Shown: positions 35,646 through 64,000 of the stretch, piece by piece
Numbering within the stretch: the first letter of the stretch is position 1
Layout of the letters: each line of letters begins with the position of its first letter
NCBI GenBank assembly: GCA_964356815.1
Contig: CAYHIR010000004.1
Span: 842 to 64,841, forward strand
Source: an uncultured Candidatus Saccharibacteria bacterium
GTDB taxonomy: Bacteria; Patescibacteriota; Minisyncoccia; Phycocordibacterales; DATGWK01
DNA: 64,000 nucleotides
Direction of reading: 5' to 3'
Made by a program: the position numbers and the translations under genes
The notes under the pieces: model-generated
Told to the model about the DNA's origin: nothing
Seen by the model: the letters and a program-made list of their open reading frames with translations, nothing else
The model's database searches: none

Positions 35646-36792
35646 AGCAATCTGGACGATAGTCGTTGTCATCATATTAGTTCTCGCACTTGGCTTCATT
35701 GCTAAAGACAAAACGAGAAATTCAGAGTCGTCTGGTGAGCCGATAAAGATAGGTAGTATATCGGCACTGACTGGCGTTGGTGTAGCCGTTGGAGAAGAAG
35801 AAAGAAGGGGCGCAGAGCTTGCGGTTGAAGAGATAAATGAAAATGGTGGTGTGATTGGACGACCGCTAAAACTTATAAGCGAAGATCTTTCGATTGATAA
35901 ATTAAAAAATGCCGGTTTGGTAACCAGTAAGCTTATAAATGTTGATAAGGTGGTTGGGATTATTGGTGCCCAATGGGATGAGCCGGCAGCTGCTGTTCTA
36001 CCTATTATCGAAAAAGCCATGATTCCGATGATTGGTCCCAACGTTACTGACTCCATTGAAACAAACAACCTCGGCGACTATCTTTTTTCGACCTGGTATG
36101 ACAATCGTGTTGGTATAAACACGATTTTAGAATATGCAAAGCAAAAAGAATTTAAAACTGGCACTATAATTCGCATTTTTGACGGTGGTTTCTGGAAATT
36201 TACATCGGATCTTGTTGCAAAAAATGCCCCAGCATACGGCATAAAAATTATTGATGACATAAACATAAATAATCCATTGTCGAATGATTTTCGAACTTTT
36301 ATCACCAAAGCTAAAGCGAAAAATCCCGATTTTATTTTCTTTGTAACGTCAGACCCGAGCCAATGCGTTTTCTTCAAACAAATGAAAGAGCAAAATTTTG
36401 ATGTGCCTGTTCTTACAACCGAAGCGGCTGGCAACAGCGCTTCTCTCGCGCAATGTCCTGAGGATTTGGCTAATTTGTACTTCAGTACTCCTTCGCCGAA
36501 ACATGATAGATACAAGGTTTTTGAAAAGTCGTTTATTGAAAAATATGGCAGAAAACCACTCTTCCCCTCGGCAGTTACCGCCTATGACGCAGTACGTATA
36601 ATGGCTTCTGCTTTGGAAAAAACCAATGGAAAAAGCGGCAAAGATTTGCAGATAGCTCTATCAGAAACCAAAGATTTTCTAGGGGCCTCCTTGCCAAATA
36701 TCACATTCAAAGAAAATGGTTTTGTGCTTACCCCTGATGATATTTTTGAGATGCAGACTGTACGCGGTGGCGAGTTTGTGAGGGTCGAGTAG
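35638..36792 (+). CDS. ABC transporter substrate-binding protein (Peripla_BP_6), paralog 4
   Basis: IKIGSISALTGVGVAVGEEERRGAELAVEEINENGG. Its start overlaps the stop of paralog 3. Confidence 0.8.
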   Translation: MNKAIWTIVVVIILVLALGFIAKDKTRNSESSGEPIKIGSISALTGVGVAVGEEERRGAELAVEEINENGGVIGRPLKLISEDLSIDKLKNAGLVTSKLINVDKVVGIIGAQWDEPAAAVLPIIEKAMIPMIGPNVTDSIETNNLGDYLFSTWYDNRVGINTILEYAKQKEFKTGTIIRIFDGGFWKFTSDLVAKNAPAYGIKIIDDININNPLSNDFRTFITKAKAKNPDFIFFVTSDPSQCVFFKQMKEQNFDVPVLTTEAAGNSASLAQCPEDLANLYFSTPSPKHDRYKVFEKSFIEKYGRKPLFPSAVTAYDAVRIMASALEKTNGKSGKDLQIALSETKDFLGASLPNITFKENGFVLTPDDIFEMQTVRGGEFVRVE

Positions 36793-54931: not shown

Positions 54932-55003
54932 GCGCCCATGGTGAAATGGATATCACAAGCGACTTCGGATCGCTTATTGTGGGTTCGAGTCCTGCTGGGC
55001 GCA
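54932..55003 (+). tRNA. tRNA-Arg (anticodon TCG)
   Basis: Manual cloverleaf. Acceptor GCGCCCA/TGGGCGC, U8, D-arm, anticodon stem AGCGA/TCGCT, loop CTTCGGA, T-arm GTGGG-TTCGAGT-CCTGC. Confidence 0.7.
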
Positions 55004-55035
55004 CTGCGAAGACAGATATAAGACAAGTTTCATAC

Positions 55036-55106
55036 GCGGGTATGGTTTAGTGGTAGAATGCGTCCTTGCCAAGGACGAGACGAGAGTTCGATTCTCTCTA
55101 CCCGCA
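55036..55106 (+). tRNA. tRNA-Gly (anticodon GCC)
   Basis: Acceptor GCGGGTA/TACCCGC. Anticodon stem CGTCC/GGACG with loop TTGCCAA. T-loop GTTCGATTC. Confidence 0.85.
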
Positions 55107-55180
55107 CACTAAAGGACCATAGGGGTCAAAAGACAGTAAAAAGGCCAAAACTGTGGATAAGTCTGGGGACATGTGTATAA
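55098..55180. repeat. Further TAAAGGAC motif copies (CTAAAGGACCA 55100; TATAAAGGACAT 55166) directly after tRNA-Gly
   Basis: The same core recurs in the xth-cca gap and twice inside cca. Confidence 0.4.
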
Positions 55181-55265
55181 AGGACATTTTCGTAAAAGTC
55201 AGTGATTTTTTGTCCTATATCTATTAAATGGCTATAAACAAAGGTTTTTGAGAGTTTTCTCTGTG

Positions 55266-55385
55266 TTTCACGTGAAAAACGGTGCGTTTGAGACTGTTTT
55301 GGGGCAATTTTAGGCATATTTAAACGAAAAAGTGTTTCTTAAGAAACGTTTCGACCCTTCTCCTGGGGGGGTATTTCACGTGAAA
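55266..55385. repeat. Palindromic GTTTC-N4-GAAAC sites: TTTCACGTGAAA at 55266 and 55374; GTTTCTTAAGAAAC at 55333
   Basis: Three perfect 12-14 bp palindromes clustered within 180 bp upstream of the YraN-like gene start. Confidence 0.55.
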
Positions 55386-55445
55386 CGCCATCTTTAACCA
55401 TTCTTAAAGTTTTCTTTAGGGTGTTTATGCTAATTTTCTGTAATT

Positions 55446-56006
55446 ATGACCACAAAACAAATTTCAAAGAAGGTAAACGCTAGAAAATGGGCAATTATAA
55501 GGAATAAAAAGAAAAAGGAGGCATCTGGCGGATCTGAGAATCAAAAGCTAGGATTTGTAGGGGAACAGGTAACTAAGAAACATCTTTTGTCTAAAGGATT
55601 GGAGTTCGTTTCTTCCAATTTTCGCCGAAAATATGGCGAAATTGATCTAATAATGAAGGTTCCTGCTGGAGCTGGTGTGGCCGGTAGGGGCAGAGAAAGA
55701 CTGATGTTTTTCGAGGTCAAAACTGTTTCACGTGAAAGGTTCGATGGTTCTTTGGTGGGGAATCGGCCAGACATTTCACGTGAAACATCAAAAGGCCGCA
55801 CTTTTGGGGAGGGTTTTAATGATTATCGCCCCGAAGACAACGTTAGTGTCTCAAAAATTAGAAAGACTCGGAGGATTATAAAAATATGGCTGGAGGAGAA
55901 CAAAATGTCTGAATCGGCCGACTGGAGCTTTAATGTAGCGCTCGTGTATCTATCTAAGTCTGAAAAGAAGTTTTATATAAAGATTTTGTGGGATGTCATC
56001 CTCTGA
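55446..56006 (+). CDS. YraN-family (UPF0102) endonuclease-like protein with internal insertion
   Basis: LSKGLEFVSSNFRRKYGEIDLIM..LMFFEVKT matches the YraN core (GEIDLI..FVEVKTR). Two TTTCACGTGAAA palindromes lie inside the ORF. Confidence 0.5.
   Translation: MTTKQISKKVNARKWAIIRNKKKKEASGGSENQKLGFVGEQVTKKHLLSKGLEFVSSNFRRKYGEIDLIMKVPAGAGVAGRGRERLMFFEVKTVSRERFDGSLVGNRPDISRETSKGRTFGEGFNDYRPEDNVSVSKIRKTRRIIKIWLEENKMSESADWSFNVALVYLSKSEKKFYIKILWDVIL
55726..55785. repeat. Two more TTTCACGTGAAA palindromes (55726, 55774) inside the YraN-like coding sequence
   Basis: The identical 12-mer recurs 48 nt apart and flanks a ~16-codon segment that looks like an insertion. Confidence 0.5.
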
Positions 56007-56084
56007 TTTTCGATTTTCAATCTCCTATGCTACGATAGCCATTGTCCTTTAAGCGCAAAAACGCGCCGACGGCAACTAGCTAAA

Positions 56085-56156
56085 CGGGGCGTGGTGTAAC
56101 GGTAACATGCTTGACTTGGGATCAAGTGACTCCGGGTTCGAATCCCGGCGCCCCGA
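56085..56156 (+). tRNA. tRNA-Pro (anticodon TGG)
   Basis: Acceptor CGGGGCG/CGCCCCG, U8. Anticodon stem CTTGA/TCAAG with loop CTTGGGA. T-arm CCGGG-TTCGAAT-CCCGG. Confidence 0.85.
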
Positions 56157-56299
56157 AATCATATAGACCAGGGATTATTAAAACAAGGTTTTCCTTGACA
56201 TGGGCTGAAGGCTGTGATATTTTCTTTGAGTTATTGTATCAAAATGATAACCTCGCTACGGAGGGTCGTAGCAACAGTTCTTTCAAAAAGGAGGAAATC

Positions 56300-57064
56300 T
56301 TGGCTAGAATAAAATCAAAACAGACCACTCTCGCACCATTCTTGGTTGAGAGTGGGCAACGCGGCGGAAACATTTTTCGAGTCGTGTCTGTGGCTGATGG
56401 CGTAACTCGCGAGCAGATCGAAACGCTGCTTACGAAGTTACCGATCCGTTTTAAGATTCACAGGTTCCCGTCGTGTTATCAAGAGCACAGTATCAACGAG
56501 CCGCTCGAGGTTCATGTTGAAGGAAGTATCGTCTACATCTATCCAACTAAAGATCGGATCATCGCTTGCACGACGCTCGATTCGTGGGGATCTGCTGATG
56601 TGGTGAGTCAGATGCATGTCGACAACATGATGGACACGCTTAGTCCTGGCCGAGGACAGCTTCGAACGTGCATCCACTTCGACCCGAAAGTTCTCGGCAT
56701 TGAAGGTTGGCCAAACACCTCGGAGGCCACGGCTGAGCTTGAGGTCGATATCCATGTCTATTCGATTGGAAAGACGTTGGAGCCTCAGATGCGTCCGCCC
56801 CAACTCGACAAATTCCAGCTACGCGATCTTCTTCAACTGATCGCTGGAAAAGAGCGGTCAATCTCAGTCCGGCAATTTGATCGCTGGAGGGATCTGATCA
56901 TGTATTCCGTCGCACACATGCGATTTGTCTACGAAGGTATGCCGGGAGATGATCCTACCCGTGACTACTATGGAATGGTGTGGAGAGAGTTTGATGCGGC
57001 CACTGACAGCGAAGGTGTGGTTCGGGCACTGGATTCTCTTGTCAGTGCGATTAACTATCAGTGA
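56300..57064 (+). CDS. Hypothetical protein (TTG start with AAGGAGG RBS); the track ORF start at 56111 overlaps tRNA-Pro
   Basis: RBS AAGGAGG lies 5 nt before an in-frame TTG. GC content is higher than the flanks. No domain recognised. Confidence 0.4.
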   Translation: MARIKSKQTTLAPFLVESGQRGGNIFRVVSVADGVTREQIETLLTKLPIRFKIHRFPSCYQEHSINEPLEVHVEGSIVYIYPTKDRIIACTTLDSWGSADVVSQMHVDNMMDTLSPGRGQLRTCIHFDPKVLGIEGWPNTSEATAELEVDIHVYSIGKTLEPQMRPPQLDKFQLRDLLQLIAGKERSISVRQFDRWRDLIMYSVAHMRFVYEGMPGDDPTRDYYGMVWREFDAATDSEGVVRALDSLVSAINYQ

Positions 57065-57137
57065 CTCGTTTTGTTCGTTCTGCCAACTTCAAGAGCGCGT
57101 GTAGAGAAAAAAATCTATACGCGCCTTTTCATTTGAA

Positions 57138-57482
57138 GTGTTAAACTTAATAAACAATCTTATGTTCAAGAAAACCCGCGAAGATTTTAAGTGCGGCAAA
57201 TGTGGCCTGCCCATGGAAGGGGACGGTTTTACAAATCATTGCTCCGCGTGTTTGTGGAGCAAGCACGTTGATATTCATCCGGGCGATAGGGAAATGGTCG
57301 ACAAATGCGGTGGCTTTATGGAGCCGGTGCGCATCGAAGGTGGTACCGACGCGAAGGGTGATGTCACCAAATACACCATCGTGCATGTTTGTGAAAGTTG
57401 CGGCTTTGAGCGACGCAATAAGGTGTCGGAGCGTGACAATTTTGAAACTGTGCTTAATATAGTGGAAGAGGCGGCGAAATAG
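57138..57482 (+). CDS. Small Cys-rich zinc-ribbon protein (RNHCP-like)
   Basis: CGKCG..FTNHCSACLWSKHVD..CESCG Cys pairs. 114 aa. Confidence 0.4.
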   Translation: MLNLINNLMFKKTREDFKCGKCGLPMEGDGFTNHCSACLWSKHVDIHPGDREMVDKCGGFMEPVRIEGGTDAKGDVTKYTIVHVCESCGFERRNKVSERDNFETVLNIVEEAAK

Positions 57483-57500
57483 CTGTTGCCGCCGAAAATC

Positions 57501-57571
57501 GCGGGTATGGTTTAGTGGTAGAATGACTGCCTTCCAAGCAGTAGACGAGAGTTCGATTCTCTCTACCCGCA
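57501..57571 (+). tRNA. tRNA-Gly (anticodon TCC)
   Basis: Same acceptor, D and T arms as the GCC isoacceptor. Anticodon stem ACTGC/GCAGT with loop CTTCCAA. Confidence 0.85.
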
Positions 57572-60616: not shown

Positions 60617-61396
60617 CTAAAGTTTCCTCGCTGTGTTAAACATGTAGTCAAATATTTTTTCAAATGTTTCTCGCACACTTTCATTTTCAATAATTGTGGT
60701 AATTATGTTGTTTTTAAAGTCGATAATCGCCACCTTGTTACCATATATTGTTATCTGTGCGGGGACATCAAAATCGTCAACGATTCGCCGATCAACCAAA
60801 AACGAAGCGTCTTCTTTTCTCTGTATTTCAATGTCTGCTTCTTCTCTATTTTCACTTAAAGCGCCTGGTAATGCTCCAACAATTTTTGTTTTTAATCCAG
60901 CTGATACTCTAAGACCCCGCTGTTTTTTTATTAAAGCTTTGTTTTCAGGAAAGGTTCTGTCTAAGTGGGAACGAAACAGCTTTATGTCCTCCCCGCTCCT
61001 TATGATGTCCTGATGCAACTCTTCTAAACCGCTTAATCCCTCTCCAAAACGAACGCTAGGTTTGCCGATCGTAATGTTGTATGAAGAAATGGCGTTACCG
61101 ATTTCTGCCCTTATTTGATTGAATGAATTCTCAATAATCACCCGTTTCTCCTCTACCATATCGAGGATTCTCTGGGGGTGTTCGGCCCTGAAGATGGCAA
61201 TCTCTCCCTTATTTTCTATTTTTTGGGCGAGCTTGAGAGATGTAAGTTGATTTAAAATCTTATATACAAAACTCCTCTCCATCTCACAGAGCCTAGAAAT
61301 TCTACTTGCCGGCAAGCCTTTATTTTTAAGAAGAGCATCGTAAATTTTTGCTTGTTCTTCGGTCAATCCAGCTGATAAAAAGAGTTTTTGATACAT
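60617..61396 (-). CDS. TrmB-family transcriptional regulator
   Basis: N-terminal wHTH LTEEQAKIYDALLKNKGLPASRISRLCEMERSFVYKILNQL. Confidence 0.6.
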   Translation of the reverse strand: MYQKLFLSAGLTEEQAKIYDALLKNKGLPASRISRLCEMERSFVYKILNQLTSLKLAQKIENKGEIAIFRAEHPQRILDMVEEKRVIIENSFNQIRAEIGNAISSYNITIGKPSVRFGEGLSGLEELHQDIIRSGEDIKLFRSHLDRTFPENKALIKKQRGLRVSAGLKTKIVGALPGALSENREEADIEIQRKEDASFLVDRRIVDDFDVPAQITIYGNKVAIIDFKNNIITTIIENESVRETFEKIFDYMFNTARKL

Positions 61397-61566
61397 GGTC
61401 TTTATAAATTGTTATAGATTTGTAACAAATATATCGTATAGAAATAACGAAAAAAGTCAACATGTTATGGGTAATATAACACTAAAATTATAAAATGTTA
61501 TAAATACATTGACAAATTTAATGAATGTGATAGTGTATCTGCAGAAAGTTTTTATCTGCCTCCCTA

Positions 61567-61602
61567 AGGGGCTTCTACCCAGTAATATATCGTAGAAGCC
61601 CA
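61567..61602 (+). ncRNA. Long perfect hairpin GGGGCTTCTAC-N13-GTAGAAGCCC in the cassette leader (function unknown)
   Basis: 10 bp perfect stem, extended by CCCTAAGG/TTAAGGGG flanks. It sits where the other cassette units carry a hammerhead ribozyme. Confidence 0.4.
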
Positions 61603-61651
61603 TTAAGGGGGACGGATATGTGTTCTTTAAACCTTTTATAGGAGATTTGAA

Positions 61652-61756
61652 ATGGCCCAAGGAAAAGGTTTTGTGTTACGAATTGGCACAAGTTTAACAG
61701 TCGTCATCGTCTGTGGCCAAATGGTGAGCCTGGAAAAGCAGTGTTCCCGAAGTTGA
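61652..61756 (+). CDS. Tiny ORF (34 aa) behind the conserved GTGTTCTTT..AGGAGATTT leader
   Basis: The leader is near-identical to the one preceding ORF 62683. Manual translation gives MAQGKGFVLRIGTSLTVVIVCGQMVSLEKQCSRS. Confidence 0.3.
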   Translation: MAQGKGFVLRIGTSLTVVIVCGQMVSLEKQCSRS

Positions 61757-61775
61757 GAGCTTCGATGGAAACTCT

Positions 61776-61828
61776 CTCTGTCGCAAAGTGTGTACTTTGC
61801 CTGACGAGCTTGAAAGGGCGAAACAGAG
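61776..61828 (+). ncRNA. Type III hammerhead ribozyme (copy A)
   Basis: GUC cleavage triplet. Stem I hairpin GCAAAGU-GUGU-ACUUUGC. Core CUGACGA. Stem II GCUU-GAAA-GGGC. GAA. Stem III ACAGAG pairs with upstream CUCUGU, with an A15.1-U16.1 pair. Confidence 0.8.
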
Positions 61829-61863
61829 ATGTTCTTTCAAAAGAATTTAGCAGGAGTTCTACC

Positions 61864-62220
61864 ATGAAGGTATGCCATATCTGTGGAAACCATGGATCCG
61901 TGACCATCATTGAAATGGTCACTTGTTCCAAGGGTTGCTGCAAAGCAACTCGCAACCAATTTGGATTGAAGATCGTTGAAGGAGGAGACCCGAGCAAGTG
62001 TGGCGGTGCAGAAAAGCATGCCGCAGTCGGGATTTGTGGGAGGTGTGTTGAAGAAAAAACCTGCGGAAGATACAGTCATCTTCCAATTCCAGGAGGAAAA
62101 CAGGCACCACCCCCTGCTCTTCCACCTCGATCTTCTTCGAATTCGAAATCAGTTGTGTCTGACACATCTGATCTAGAACGACGGAGGAGAAATACTTCGG
62201 TTAGATTCCGGAGCGCTTGA
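61864..62220 (+). CDS. Cys-rich small protein (118 aa) downstream of hammerhead A
   Basis: RBS GCAGGAG then ATG. Multiple CxxC/CC pairs (CHICGN..CSKGCC..CGRCVEEKTC). The track ORF 61741 start would overlap the ribozyme. Confidence 0.5.
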   Translation: MKVCHICGNHGSVTIIEMVTCSKGCCKATRNQFGLKIVEGGDPSKCGGAEKHAAVGICGRCVEEKTCGRYSHLPIPGGKQAPPPALPPRSSSNSKSVVSDTSDLERRRRNTSVRFRSA

Positions 62221-62266
62221 TAAGCGAGTACTATCGGAAGTTTTGGGAGACTTCAAAAAAATCTCC

Positions 62267-62318
62267 CTCTGTCGTGAAGTGTGTACTTCACCTGATGAGT
62301 CTGAAAAGACGAAACAGA
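62267..62318 (+). ncRNA. Type III hammerhead ribozyme (copy B)
   Basis: GUC. Stem I GUGAAGU-GUGU-ACUUCAC. CUGAUGA. Stem II GUCU-GAAA-AGAC. GAA. Stem III ACAGA/UCUGU. Stems co-vary relative to copy A. Confidence 0.85.
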
Positions 62319-62359
62319 AAAAGTTCTTTGAATTTACACCACTGTATTGGGAGATAAAC

Positions 62360-62638
62360 ATGATGATCAAGAAGGATCAGGTTCATGCCGATTTTCTCAT
62401 TGGTGCGTGCATCCGGACAGGGTGGCCGACGGAAGAGGTGATCCCGCTTGTTTACGGGGCGTCTCAACCAGAGGTGGATCGCCTTGTCGAGCACTGTCTC
62501 GAGAGAAAAGAGTTCTCGTTGGCTTTCGACGCTACGTACCTTGGTGCGTCAGAGGCAATGAAGGACCGTGTGGTGACGGCTCACATTCAAAACCGCCGCC
62601 CATTCCCACCCGGACCACCGTCGTGGTTCCGGGAATAA
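62360..62638 (+). CDS. Small hypothetical protein (92 aa) downstream of hammerhead B
   Basis: RBS GGGAG then ATGATG. Higher-GC composition. Confidence 0.45.
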   Translation: MMIKKDQVHADFLIGACIRTGWPTEEVIPLVYGASQPEVDRLVEHCLERKEFSLAFDATYLGASEAMKDRVVTAHIQNRRPFPPGPPSWFRE

Positions 62639-62682
62639 AGACGAAACAGAAGTGTTCTTTTCACCACCACAGGAGATTTCAC

Positions 62683-62916
62683 ATGGAATTTGTCGTTATT
62701 GTGATCAAAAACACCGGTCCGGAAGGTTCGTTTGAGAGCCGTGTCAACGTCCTAGACAACACCCTCCAACCTCTCGGGTCCATTGTTTGTGTTCACCACC
62801 CCGACGATCCATCCGACCAGCGCCGGGTGCAGCTACACAACCCTTGGCATGCCGCGGATGTAGAGGAACACATCGCACGGCAAGGTTTCAAGGTGGTGAA
62901 GAGATATCGTGGTTAA
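62683..62916 (+). CDS. Small hypothetical protein (77 aa) behind a degenerate hammerhead 3' half
   Basis: Leader AGACGAAACAGAAGTGTTCTTT..AGGAGATTTCAC, then ATG. Confidence 0.45.
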   Translation: MEFVVIVIKNTGPEGSFESRVNVLDNTLQPLGSIVCVHHPDDPSDQRRVQLHNPWHAADVEEHIARQGFKVVKRYRG

Positions 62917-62957
62917 GTCCACAAACGTTTTCGGTTCACGTTAAGCAACCGAAGCCA

Positions 62958-62980
62958 CGATCAATTGATCGGGTTTTTTT
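62958..62980 (+). terminator. Rho-independent terminator (CGATCAATTGATCG hairpin + GGTTTTTTT)
   Basis: Perfect palindrome followed by a T7 run, right after the last cassette ORF. Confidence 0.55.
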
Positions 62981-63000: not shown

Positions 63001-64000
63001 TTATCTGGCAAACTCAGTGGCCCTCATCTCGCGGATGACGTTGACCTTTATCTCGCCTGGGTATTTGAGCTCGTTTTCGACGCGTAAAGCTATATTTCTA
63101 GCCATTTCTTTGGCTTCGAGGTCGGAAACTTGGGCAGGGAATACGAAGACGCGGATTTCGCGGCCGGCTTGGAGAGCGTACGATTTTTCTACGCCGGCAA
63201 AGGAGCTGGCTACTGCCTCGAGCTCGGAAAGGCGCTTGAGATAGTTTTCAACGCTATCGCGGCGGGCGCCAGGGCGACTACCAGAGATGGCGTCGGCAGT
63301 TTGGACAATAATAGACTCAATAGTCTCATACGGATATTCTCCATGATGAGCCTGCATGGCTTTGATGATTTCTTCGCTGGCGCCAAATTTTTGCAAGATG
63401 CGGCGGCCGATTTCTACATGCGAGCCAGCCACTTCATGATCGACAGCTTTGCCGATATCGTGAAGAAGGGCGCCAGCTTTTGCCACGGCCACATTTGCGC
63501 CGAGCTCTTCAGCGAGCATGCCGGCGATATGTGTCATTTCTATAGAATGCTGAAGCACATTTTGTCCGTAGCTTGTGCGGAAATGAAGGCGGCCGACGAT
63601 AGAAACAATGCGCGGGTCTAAGTTGAACACTCCCGCTTCATAAACGGCTTGTTCACCTTTTTCTTTTATAATTTTGTCTATCTCTTGTTTGGCTTTTTCA
63701 ACCATCTCCTCAATTTTCGCAGGTTGAATACGTCCATCTTGAATGAGATTTTCGAGAGCAACGCGCGCTAGCTGGCGGCGTACTGGGTCGAAAGAGGAGA
63801 TAGTGATGGCGCCTGGTGTATCGTCGACAATTATTTCCACACCCGTAGCGCGCTCGAAGGCCTTGATGTTTCGTCCTTCTTTACCAATAATTTTGCCCTT
63901 CACTTCGTCTGAAGGAATCGGCACGATGGTCGTCATAATTTCCGAAGACACAGAAGTGGCAAGGCGTTGAATAGTGACAGCCAAAATATCTTTGGCGCGG
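63001..64000 (-). CDS. rny: Ribonuclease Y, C-terminal part; N-terminus lies outside the window
   Basis: KH domain (KGKIIGKEGRNIKAFERATGVEIIVDDTPGAITISSFDPVRRQLARVALENLIQDGRIQPAKIEEMVEKAK). HD domain (LLHDIGKAVDHE). Confidence 0.85.
   Translation of the reverse strand, partial: RAKDILAVTIQRLATSVSSEIMTTIVPIPSDEVKGKIIGKEGRNIKAFERATGVEIIVDDTPGAITISSFDPVRRQLARVALENLIQDGRIQPAKIEEMVEKAKQEIDKIIKEKGEQAVYEAGVFNLDPRIVSIVGRLHFRTSYGQNVLQHSIEMTHIAGMLAEELGANVAVAKAGALLHDIGKAVDHEVAGSHVEIGRRILQKFGASEEIIKAMQAHHGEYPYETIESIIVQTADAISGSRPGARRDSVENYLKRLSELEAVASSFAGVEKSYALQAGREIRVFVFPAQVSDLEAKEMARNIALRVENELKYPGEIKVNVIREMRATEFAR

Follow-up and report, generated by a model that had tools for sequence, protein, structure and literature searches.

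Two predicted type III hammerhead ribozymes in the intercistronic leaders of a small-gene operon from an uncultured Candidatus Saccharibacteria bacterium

Tandem hammerhead ribozymes are known from prophage regions of bacteria, where they flank single genes or short runs of genes in Clostridium scindens, in Azorhizobium caulinodans and at ardA of Agrobacterium tumefaciens (Perreault et al. 2011, PMC3088659). These tandem hammerheads cleave polycistronic RNAs of ~2 kb in vitro, and the role proposed for them is the cutting of a long RNA into single-gene mRNAs (PMC3088659). A further precedent is a variant of the HHphage hammerhead in the haloviruses HF1 and HF2, located 13 nucleotides (nt) upstream of a helicase start codon, for which a transcript 5' end has been mapped no more than 3 nt from the cleavage site, consistent with cleavage in vivo (PMC3088659). 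Here we describe two hammerheads, copies A and B, in a 64,000-nt stretch of DNA from an uncultured Candidatus Saccharibacteria bacterium (assembly GCA_964356815.1, contig CAYHIR010000004.1, positions 842 to 64,841 of the forward strand), which we call the window and in whose coordinates features are given. Look-ups of identical proteins assign the window to a contig of 94.6 kb from Hainich groundwater, whose organism NCBI lists as a Patescibacteria group bacterium. The copies lie within a plus-strand operon of four small genes (open reading frames, or ORFs, at 61652-62916; the whole unit at about 61545-62980) that sits between two minus-strand genes, one for a TrmB-like regulator and one for RNase Y. 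Judged by motif, both are type III hammerheads that are likely to be catalytically competent, and in our best explanation of the locus, to which we give the same good measure of confidence, they would act from intercistronic leaders to split a polycistronic RNA into single-gene mRNAs, the role also proposed for the prophage arrays (PMC3088659).

The arrangement of A and B itself belongs to a known class, that of intercistronic hammerhead arrays. As in the prophage regions, several hammerheads on one strand stand between the genes of a single predicted transcript, and those genes are variable and mostly hypothetical; A and B flank ORF2, one of four plus-strand ORFs that share a single terminator-like site. 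The setting is different, however, being a Patescibacteria chromosome and a slot between TrmB-like and RNase Y genes, with no phage or integrase gene adjoining the array and none of the four ORFs matching a PHROG or Pfam family. The window ribozymes are also part of a module, consisting of a hairpin (H0), the ribozyme and the sequence GUUCUUU, that was not seen in 120 viral loci examined. The halovirus HHphage variant is similar in lying immediately before a start codon, but it is archaeal-viral and carries an atypical core insertion, whereas in the window copies the core is canonical and the distance to the ATG is 34-41 nt.

Both copies were scored with the Rfam covariance model RF00008 (Hammerhead_3) and with R1, a covariance model made from 39 hammerheads outside the window (viral contigs supplied 33 of these, metagenome contigs the other six) and run over all 64 kb with filters off. 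The two matches, with expectation values (E), are as follows.

61775-61829, plus strand: hammerhead A, type III; full-length match to RF00008 at 32.3 bits (E 1e-5 in 121 nt); R1 67.6 bits (E 2.9e-18); predicted cut between C61782 and G61783.
62268-62318, plus strand: hammerhead B, type III; full-length match to RF00008 at 44.3 bits (E 1e-7 within 3 kb, 2e-6 across the window); R1 77.7 bits (E 2e-21); predicted cut between C62273 and G62274.

All invariant positions of the hammerhead core are intact in A and B (C3, U4, G5, A6, G8 and A9; G12, A13 and A14), as are the A15.1-U16.1 pair, the G10.1-C11.1 closing pair and C17. Read 5' to 3', with a slash at the scissile bond, copy A is UCUCUGUC/GCAAAGU-GUGU-ACUUUGC-CUGACGA-GCUU-GAAA-GGGC-GAA-ACAGAGA and copy B is UCUGUC/GUGAAGU-GUGU-ACUUCAC-CUGAUGA-GUCU-GAAA-AGAC-GAA-ACAGA. 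The core strand CUGANGA, in which position 7 is the variable one, is CUGACGA at 61801-61807 in A and CUGAUGA at 62292-62298 in B. The GAA occupies 61820-61822 in A, where A61823 pairs with U61781 and C17 is nucleotide 61782, and 62311-62313 in B, where A62314 pairs with U62272 and C17 is nucleotide 62273; GUC is the cleavage triplet in both. Stem I is 7 bp long, counting the U-A pair that closes a GUGU tetraloop, and stem II is 4 bp; both are capped by loops, and it is stem III that connects the motif to the RNA on either side, which is the type III topology. For copy A the thermodynamic minimum free energy (MFE) fold reproduces the hammerhead secondary structure exactly.

A preliminary description of this DNA had reported two complete type III hammerheads with a full core, and every feature that it listed is found where it was placed; direct reading of the sequence confirms the stem I and stem II sequences and the predicted cut sites that it quoted. 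Its lengths for stem III hold for copy B (5 bp), and for copy A the 6 bp reported is better given as 6-7 bp. It had also put the ribozymes in 5' leaders, with which we agree, as hammerheads A and B end 34 and 41 nt before the ATG codons at 61864 and 62360, each of which is preceded by a Shine-Dalgarno (SD) sequence.

With the RF00008 family the window copies share the catalytic core, the three-helix junction, the open stem III, the capped stems I and II and the GUC triplet. They differ from it in their loops, which are longer and of other sequence in the model consensus; here UGUGUA, its closing U-A pair included, forms loop 1, and the 4-bp stem II is capped by GAAA as loop 2. The same geometry, with a 7-bp stem I, a 4-bp stem II and an RAAA loop, is found in phage hammerheads in at least 33 distinct copies. 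The strong conservation of loop 1 (U-GUGU-R) and loop 2 (RAAA) across 39 independent hammerhead copies suggests a possible tertiary contact between stems I and II, of the kind tied to activity at physiological Mg2+.

A default Rfam scan of the window at the gathering threshold returns four tRNAs only and neither hammerhead, because both copies score below the 48.5 bits at which RF00008 is set, an operational cut-off for annotation rather than a biochemical definition. The RF00008 alignments of A and B contain no core mismatch, and nine related copies that match this model are likewise below the threshold, the Patescibacteria relatives scoring 35.7-46 bits. The Infernal check with Hammerhead_3 that the preliminary description had proposed gives significant scores for both copies, though under the gathering score; the lack of a significant score, which it had named as refuting, is not observed. 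With R1 the next best score in the window is 10.7 bits (E 1.3); the R1 E-values are rough, as they come from a shortened calibration, and the gap to the next score is unambiguous. The window holds exactly two complete hammerheads by this search. A loose core pattern, CTGANGA..CGAAAC, occurs three times against 0.43 expected, and its third match, at 36458, was rejected as a hammerhead; R1 gives nothing above 10.7 bits besides A and B.

What emerges is a blind spot of annotation, in that a class of canonical hammerheads falls below the Rfam threshold and gene callers translate through them. The automatic call for ORF2 is such a case: it makes the protein 151 aa (window 61765-62220; 4406-4861 in L001) by reading through hammerhead A, whereas all five ORF2 homologues start at the position of M42, which argues that copy A is untranslated leader and not coding sequence. 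The spurious peptide LSVAKCVLCL owes its conservation solely to the ribozyme, and the peptide LSVAKCVLCLTSLKGRNR that results from the extension finds a 76% "homologue" in the related locus L218, a match that arises because the ribozyme RNA is conserved and for no other reason.

That selection acts on structure, as the preliminary description had argued from the two copies, gains support from relatives as well. In a gapless alignment of eight copies (A, B and six hammerheads from contigs with ORF2 homologues), double-sided changes are seen at 15 of 18 pairs and 91.7% of cells form pairs, a result that no shuffle out of 500 matched; slid controls reach at most 55% paired. An alignment of 148 distinct copies from Patescibacteria has 97.4% of its cells paired and covariation at 14 of 16 pairs; it was fitted to the model and so leans towards structure. 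The ORF2 homologues lie on short contigs, in same-strand arrays of small ORFs whose spacers contain hammerheads of the same geometry together with the leader.

Two relatives, L218 and L219, whose TrmB-like protein is 59-64% identical to that of the window, keep the TrmB-to-RNase Y slot and hold three hammerheads each within it, on the cassette strand, at 52.9-75.5 bits. Compared by eye, their stem I matches the one in copy A exactly, and their stem II is GCUC/GAGC where copy A has GCUU/GGGC, two transitions that preserve pairing. The genes in the slot are different ones, encoding proteins of 227/228 aa, 62 aa (Cys-rich), 120 aa and 73 aa. In this slot, then, genes turn over and ribozyme modules persist, which turns the notion of an "insulated, portable 5' untranslated region (UTR)" into a concrete testable hypothesis. 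Saccharibacteria are now genetically manipulable (PMC10633639).

The operon and its two flanking genes comprise the following features in addition to the hammerheads.

60617-61396, minus strand: TrmB-like helix-turn-helix regulator (Pfam TrmB, E 2.7e-9), divergent from the operon and its probable regulator.
61509-61536, plus strand: putative promoter, TTGACA, a 16-nt spacer and TGaTAGTGT, as read from the sequence.
61553-61618, plus strand: long hairpin with an internal loop, in unit 1; MFE -33.5 kcal/mol, z -4.6, not equalled in 200 shuffles.
61622-61628, plus strand: GUUCUUU copy 1, 23 nt before the ORF1 ATG.
61652-61756, plus strand: ORF1, 34 aa, a gene call in L002, no family match.
61755-61776, plus strand: H0-A hairpin, GAGAG/CUCUC with a 12-nt loop, abutting stem III of A.
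61831-61837, plus strand: GUUCUUU copy 2, 26 nt before the ORF2 ATG.
61864-62220, plus strand: ORF2, 118 aa, Cys-rich, with eight Cys and one His invariant among homologues.
62245-62267, plus strand: H0-B hairpin, GGGAGA/UCUCCC with an 11-nt A-rich loop, abutting stem III of B.
62323-62329, plus strand: GUUCUUU copy 3, 30 nt before the ORF3 ATG.
62360-62638, plus strand: ORF3, 92 aa, orphan, its sole match among 5.8 billion proteins being itself.
62637-62652, plus strand: hammerhead 3' half, AAAGACGAAACAGAAG, lacking a 5' half; the initial 15 nt repeat 62305-62319 of B exactly.
62654-62660, plus strand: GUUCUUU copy 4, 22 nt before the ORF4 ATG.
62683-62916, plus strand: ORF4, 77 aa, orphan, the protein search returning itself alone.
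62958-62980, plus strand: terminator-like hairpin and U-run that closes the operon, the single such site after ORF4.
63001-63984, minus strand: RNase Y, the downstream flank of the operon.

In support of our best explanation, the four ORFs are on one strand, each with its leader, SD sequence and ATG, and one terminator-like site follows the last of them. During transcription of the operon each ribozyme would fold, stem III closing the motif, and the backbone would then cut itself after C17, at 61782/61783 and 62273/62274. The upstream fragment would be left with a 2',3'-cyclic phosphate directly after an H0 hairpin; the downstream fragment would begin at the base of stem I, where it would carry a 5'-OH, and would retain the folded ribozyme, GUUCUUU, the SD sequence and the ATG. 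One transcript would in this way yield separate mRNAs for ORF1, for ORF2 and for ORF3-ORF4, each with a standardized, structure-protected end and with stability and translation independent of its neighbors. We infer cleavage itself, the single transcript and the effect on stability and translation. A 5'-OH end with 5' structure is a poor substrate for RNases that are stimulated by a 5'-monophosphate, and a 3' hairpin slows 3' exonucleases; on this background of RNA decay, cleavage should uncouple the stability and translation of adjoining cistrons.

Two systems of similar logic lie outside the natural hammerheads. RiboJ is a synthetic insulator in which the hammerhead of satellite tobacco ringspot virus (sTRSV), followed by a hairpin, stands before the ribosome-binding site, strips away upstream sequence and fixes the leader. 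By analogy, a hammerhead in the 5' UTR would give each coding region here a fixed leader whatever its context, with the differences that RiboJ is engineered and has a designed hairpin, while the window module is natural, is followed by GUUCUUU and is only putatively insulating. In the early genes of phage T7, intercistronic RNase III hairpins split a polycistronic mRNA and leave stable hairpin ends. Conceptually, these sites are closest to the long hairpins that occupy the hammerhead slot, in unit 1 and, as a second motif, in related loci; they depend on a protein, whereas hammerheads are self-cleaving.

Several observations weigh against this explanation of the operon. The RF00008 scores of both copies are under the gathering score. 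Copy A has two G-U pairs in stem II and the stem III of copy B is just 5 bp, so that cleavage rates could be modest. The ORF3-ORF4 junction has no complete ribozyme and works without one, which means that cleavage is not obligatory for expression. A consensus promoter scan made no plus-strand call at 61509-61536, where we infer the promoter. In addition, a 2019 review still calls the purpose of bacterial hammerheads unresolved (PMC6765202).

At the ORF3-ORF4 junction the stretch at 62637-62652 was considered as part of a split or discontinuous hammerhead and rejected, as ORF3 is without CUGANGA: no such core strand occurs in 62330-62640, and R1 finds no third hammerhead. Its sole partner would be the 5' half of copy B, with the cut site unchanged, and we read it as a relic.

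To assess distribution, one genome per species was scanned with a pattern made of the hammerhead 3' half and the leader. This gave 87 loci, nearly all of them in metagenome-assembled genomes of Patescibacteria, among which are Saccharibacteria, Paceibacterota and Nomura-, Taylor-, Kaiser-, Wolfe-, Giovannoni-, Magasanik- and Zambryskii-bacteria. R1 finds 186 hammerhead matches in these loci, with up to about eight on one strand of a single 8-kb locus. An ORF lies downstream in 120 of 150 aligned matches, at a median of 52 nt from hammerhead to start and with a median length of 107 aa. For 116 ORFs downstream of Patescibacteria hammerheads 27 Pfam families were matched, with one to three members each, and nearly all of these ORFs are uncharacterized. 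Our literature search returned no relevant paper that joins hammerhead ribozymes with Patescibacteria or the candidate phyla radiation, although absence from the searched set proves nothing wider; the abundance of hammerheads in Patescibacteria and the composite H0-ribozyme-GUUCUUU module appear to be undescribed. Some copies in these arrays have variant cores or closing pairs (L124:1357-1417, L128:1049-1109, L160:2596-2656 and L208:2355-2415; U4C, giving CCGAUGA, and G10.1/C11.1 changed to U/U). These variants should weaken cleavage, which suggests that arrays mix decaying or slow copies with canonical ones.

In the operon every ORF is preceded by GUUCUUU, then an SD sequence, then the ATG 22-30 nt on. 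The window as a whole has 18 copies of GUUCUUU against 18.1 expected, so the four cassette copies are a local feature; a genome-wide translation signal was rejected, since only these four lie at a fixed distance before a start. Beyond the window, the leader (with at most one mismatch) is present at 35 of 51 Patescibacteria hammerheads that had not been selected for it, compared with 5.8% of controls, and is missing from all 39 of the phage hammerheads with this geometry that were examined. Of 146 Patescibacteria hammerheads, 112 have an H0-like hairpin (6 bp or longer) directly against stem III, compared with 45 of 146 control positions. U15.2 stems also seemed to go with GAUC leaders; the cases are too few and probably orthologous.

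In related arrays the place of the hammerhead, between H0 and GUUCUUU, is often filled by a second conserved structured RNA, which we call motif 2. It has the form YUUU-AUW-GAGUYC, a variable hairpin, GRAUUC-WUWGAG and then GUUCUUU, with examples at L130:425-479, L125:1347-1398 and L124:224-280 and, on the minus strand, at L243:2355-2408 and L221:1036-1088. A metagenome scan found it at 86 loci, and a relaxed pattern with a hairpin filter, applied to nonviral loci, gave 59 distinct well-paired instances. RNAalifold, given 38 instances, folds motif 2 into an inner helix of 12 bp and an outer one of 4 bp, with a small conserved internal loop, and shows compensatory change at 11 of 16 pairs. Five loci tested gave no Rfam match to it, it is absent from the window, and loci picked for motif 2 alone contain 33 hammerhead matches. 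Motif 2 is a lead to a possibly new RNA element; it could be a site for an RNase III-type or other nuclease, or a new self-cleaving class.

These observations can be read more broadly, as a lineage-wide and undescribed cassette of Patescibacteria in which H0, an interchangeable processing element, GUUCUUU, the SD sequence and the ATG follow one another and which punctuates fast-turnover arrays of small orphan genes. We entertain this reading tentatively and give it somewhat less than even chances. The slot would hold a type III hammerhead, motif 2 or another long hairpin such as that at 61553-61618, and the leader would be an element that resolves the ribozyme or serves translation.

The leader and H0 also raise the question of a conditional switch, in which one or the other would pair alternatively and unfold the ribozyme, so that cleavage, or release and re-ligation, would be tuned by a trigger such as ribosome loading on the leader. 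We regard this as unlikely. The leader is complementary to loop 2 and the 3' strand of stem II (AAA-GRRC); of 105 Patescibacteria copies, 72% would pair at all seven positions, and the mean is 6.7. When the cleaved leader of copy A is folded, its MFE structure replaces stem II with exactly this helix, 10 bp long; the two outermost pairs of the copy A stem III are overlapped by the 3' arm of H0-A; and the enrichment of the leader at unselected hammerheads fits such a role. On the other hand, the leader is nearly invariant and therefore offers no covariation that would back the pairing, and leaderless phage hammerheads have the same purine-rich strand, 64% of which would pair at seven of seven positions (Fisher p 0.41). 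Because these phage hammerheads share the purine bias, the test of leader-stem II pairing as a constraint does not discriminate. Furthermore, copy B and about a quarter of the copies mismatch the conserved C of the leader, which is also present at units 1 and 4, where there is no complete ribozyme.

Turnover of genes around persistent hammerheads could instead mean that the modules are mainly junctions at the DNA level, ~90 nt of homology through which small ORFs are swapped as gene cassettes, with RNA cleavage secondary. The differing gene content of relatives at the TrmB-to-RNase Y slot fits such exchange, as do the orphan status of ORF3 and ORF4 and the matching of just 27 Pfam families, with one to three members each, among the 116 downstream ORFs. 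A further sign is an identical 15-nt direct repeat, AAAGACGAAACAGAA, at 62305-62319 and 62637-62651, which brackets a leader and ORF3; its second copy is a hammerhead 3' half, suggesting that ORF3 was inserted by recombination inside a ribozyme. A mere patch of homology would not, however, need the purifying selection seen on pairing and on every catalytic nucleotide, and no recombinase adjoins the array in the window. As the principal role of the modules, exchange seems improbable to us; it is compatible with the splitting of a polycistronic RNA by the hammerheads, and the two can coexist.

Much less probable still is that the two hammerheads, 491 nt apart, excise 61783-62273 as a circular RNA that carries ORF2, in the manner of retrozymes, viroid-like RNAs or Obelisks. 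Hammerheads in direct repeat yield 5'-OH and 2',3'-cyclic-phosphate ends, which RtcB-type ligases join, and the segment between A and B does hold one complete ORF. The repeat is just 68 nt at 78% identity, though, with no long terminal repeat-like sequences and no target-site duplications, and the bracketed segment, which would be noncoding in a retrozyme- or viroid-like locus with long direct repeats, contains ORF2 with an SD sequence of its own. The unit belongs to a chromosomal operon that has SD sequences and a terminator of its own, and arrays elsewhere carry three to eight ribozymes at very variable spacing. Neither circular nor spliced products of such arrays were seen when Perreault et al. 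looked for them (PMC3088659). Chance resemblance, or decay into nonfunctional repeat copies, might be suspected from the sub-gathering Rfam scores and from the one decayed copy that does exist, at 62637-62652, but is effectively refuted by the R1 scores (E 1e-18 to 1e-21 from an independent model, over a background of at most 10.7 bits) and by covariation; neither copy has any core substitution, and the changes relative to relatives are compensatory or wobble preserving.

Upstream of ORF1, the block TGTTATAAAT..TTGACAAAT and a -10-like hexamer are common to the window, L218, L219 and L126, and the divergent TrmB-like arrangement is seen again in L218 and L219. The divergent promoter region at 61398-61540, as well as its counterparts in L218, L219 and L126, has AT-rich inverted repeats with half-sites of the TGTTATAA type beside the conserved TTGACAAAT. 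These repeats are probably the operator of the adjacent TrmB-like regulator, in which case the ribozyme operon would be a regulated unit. The unit 1 hairpin, at the start of the operon leader, has the internal loop UAA/AUUAA and is kept in L218, where an A-U pair replaces a C/A mismatch. It was considered as a twister, pistol, hatchet or other ribozyme and rejected, as its Rfam matches are only spurious ones to microRNA hairpins.

The five homologues of ORF2 are ~52% identical to it. Its AlphaFold model has a predicted local distance difference test (pLDDT) value of 56, and Foldseek against the PDB gives nothing with E < 1. Other neighbors of the operon include genes for HU and an epimerase, and the nearest rve-family gene is ~3.6 kb past the operon in L001, with housekeeping genes between. 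Three further contigs with this locus are 100% identical across the region covered.

Among the related loci, L218 (3966-4260, minus strand) and L219 (3388-3672, minus strand) have a structured noncoding stretch of ~290 nt, whose MFE is about -116 to -120 kcal/mol. In L218 this stretch follows the last hammerhead directly, and in L219 it immediately precedes the first; Rfam gives no match to it, and the window lacks it. L130 has at 1397-1530 a truncated segment resembling transfer-messenger RNA (tmRNA; Rfam tmRNA 38 bits, below gathering) within a small-ORF array, beside a weak TrbC match, and this segment may be the integration-site remnant of a mobile element. The window itself has four plus-strand tRNA genes at 54932-57571; those at 55036 and 57501 are nearly identical outside the anticodon arm, and, with anticodons that read GCC and UCC, they are probably Gly isoacceptors.

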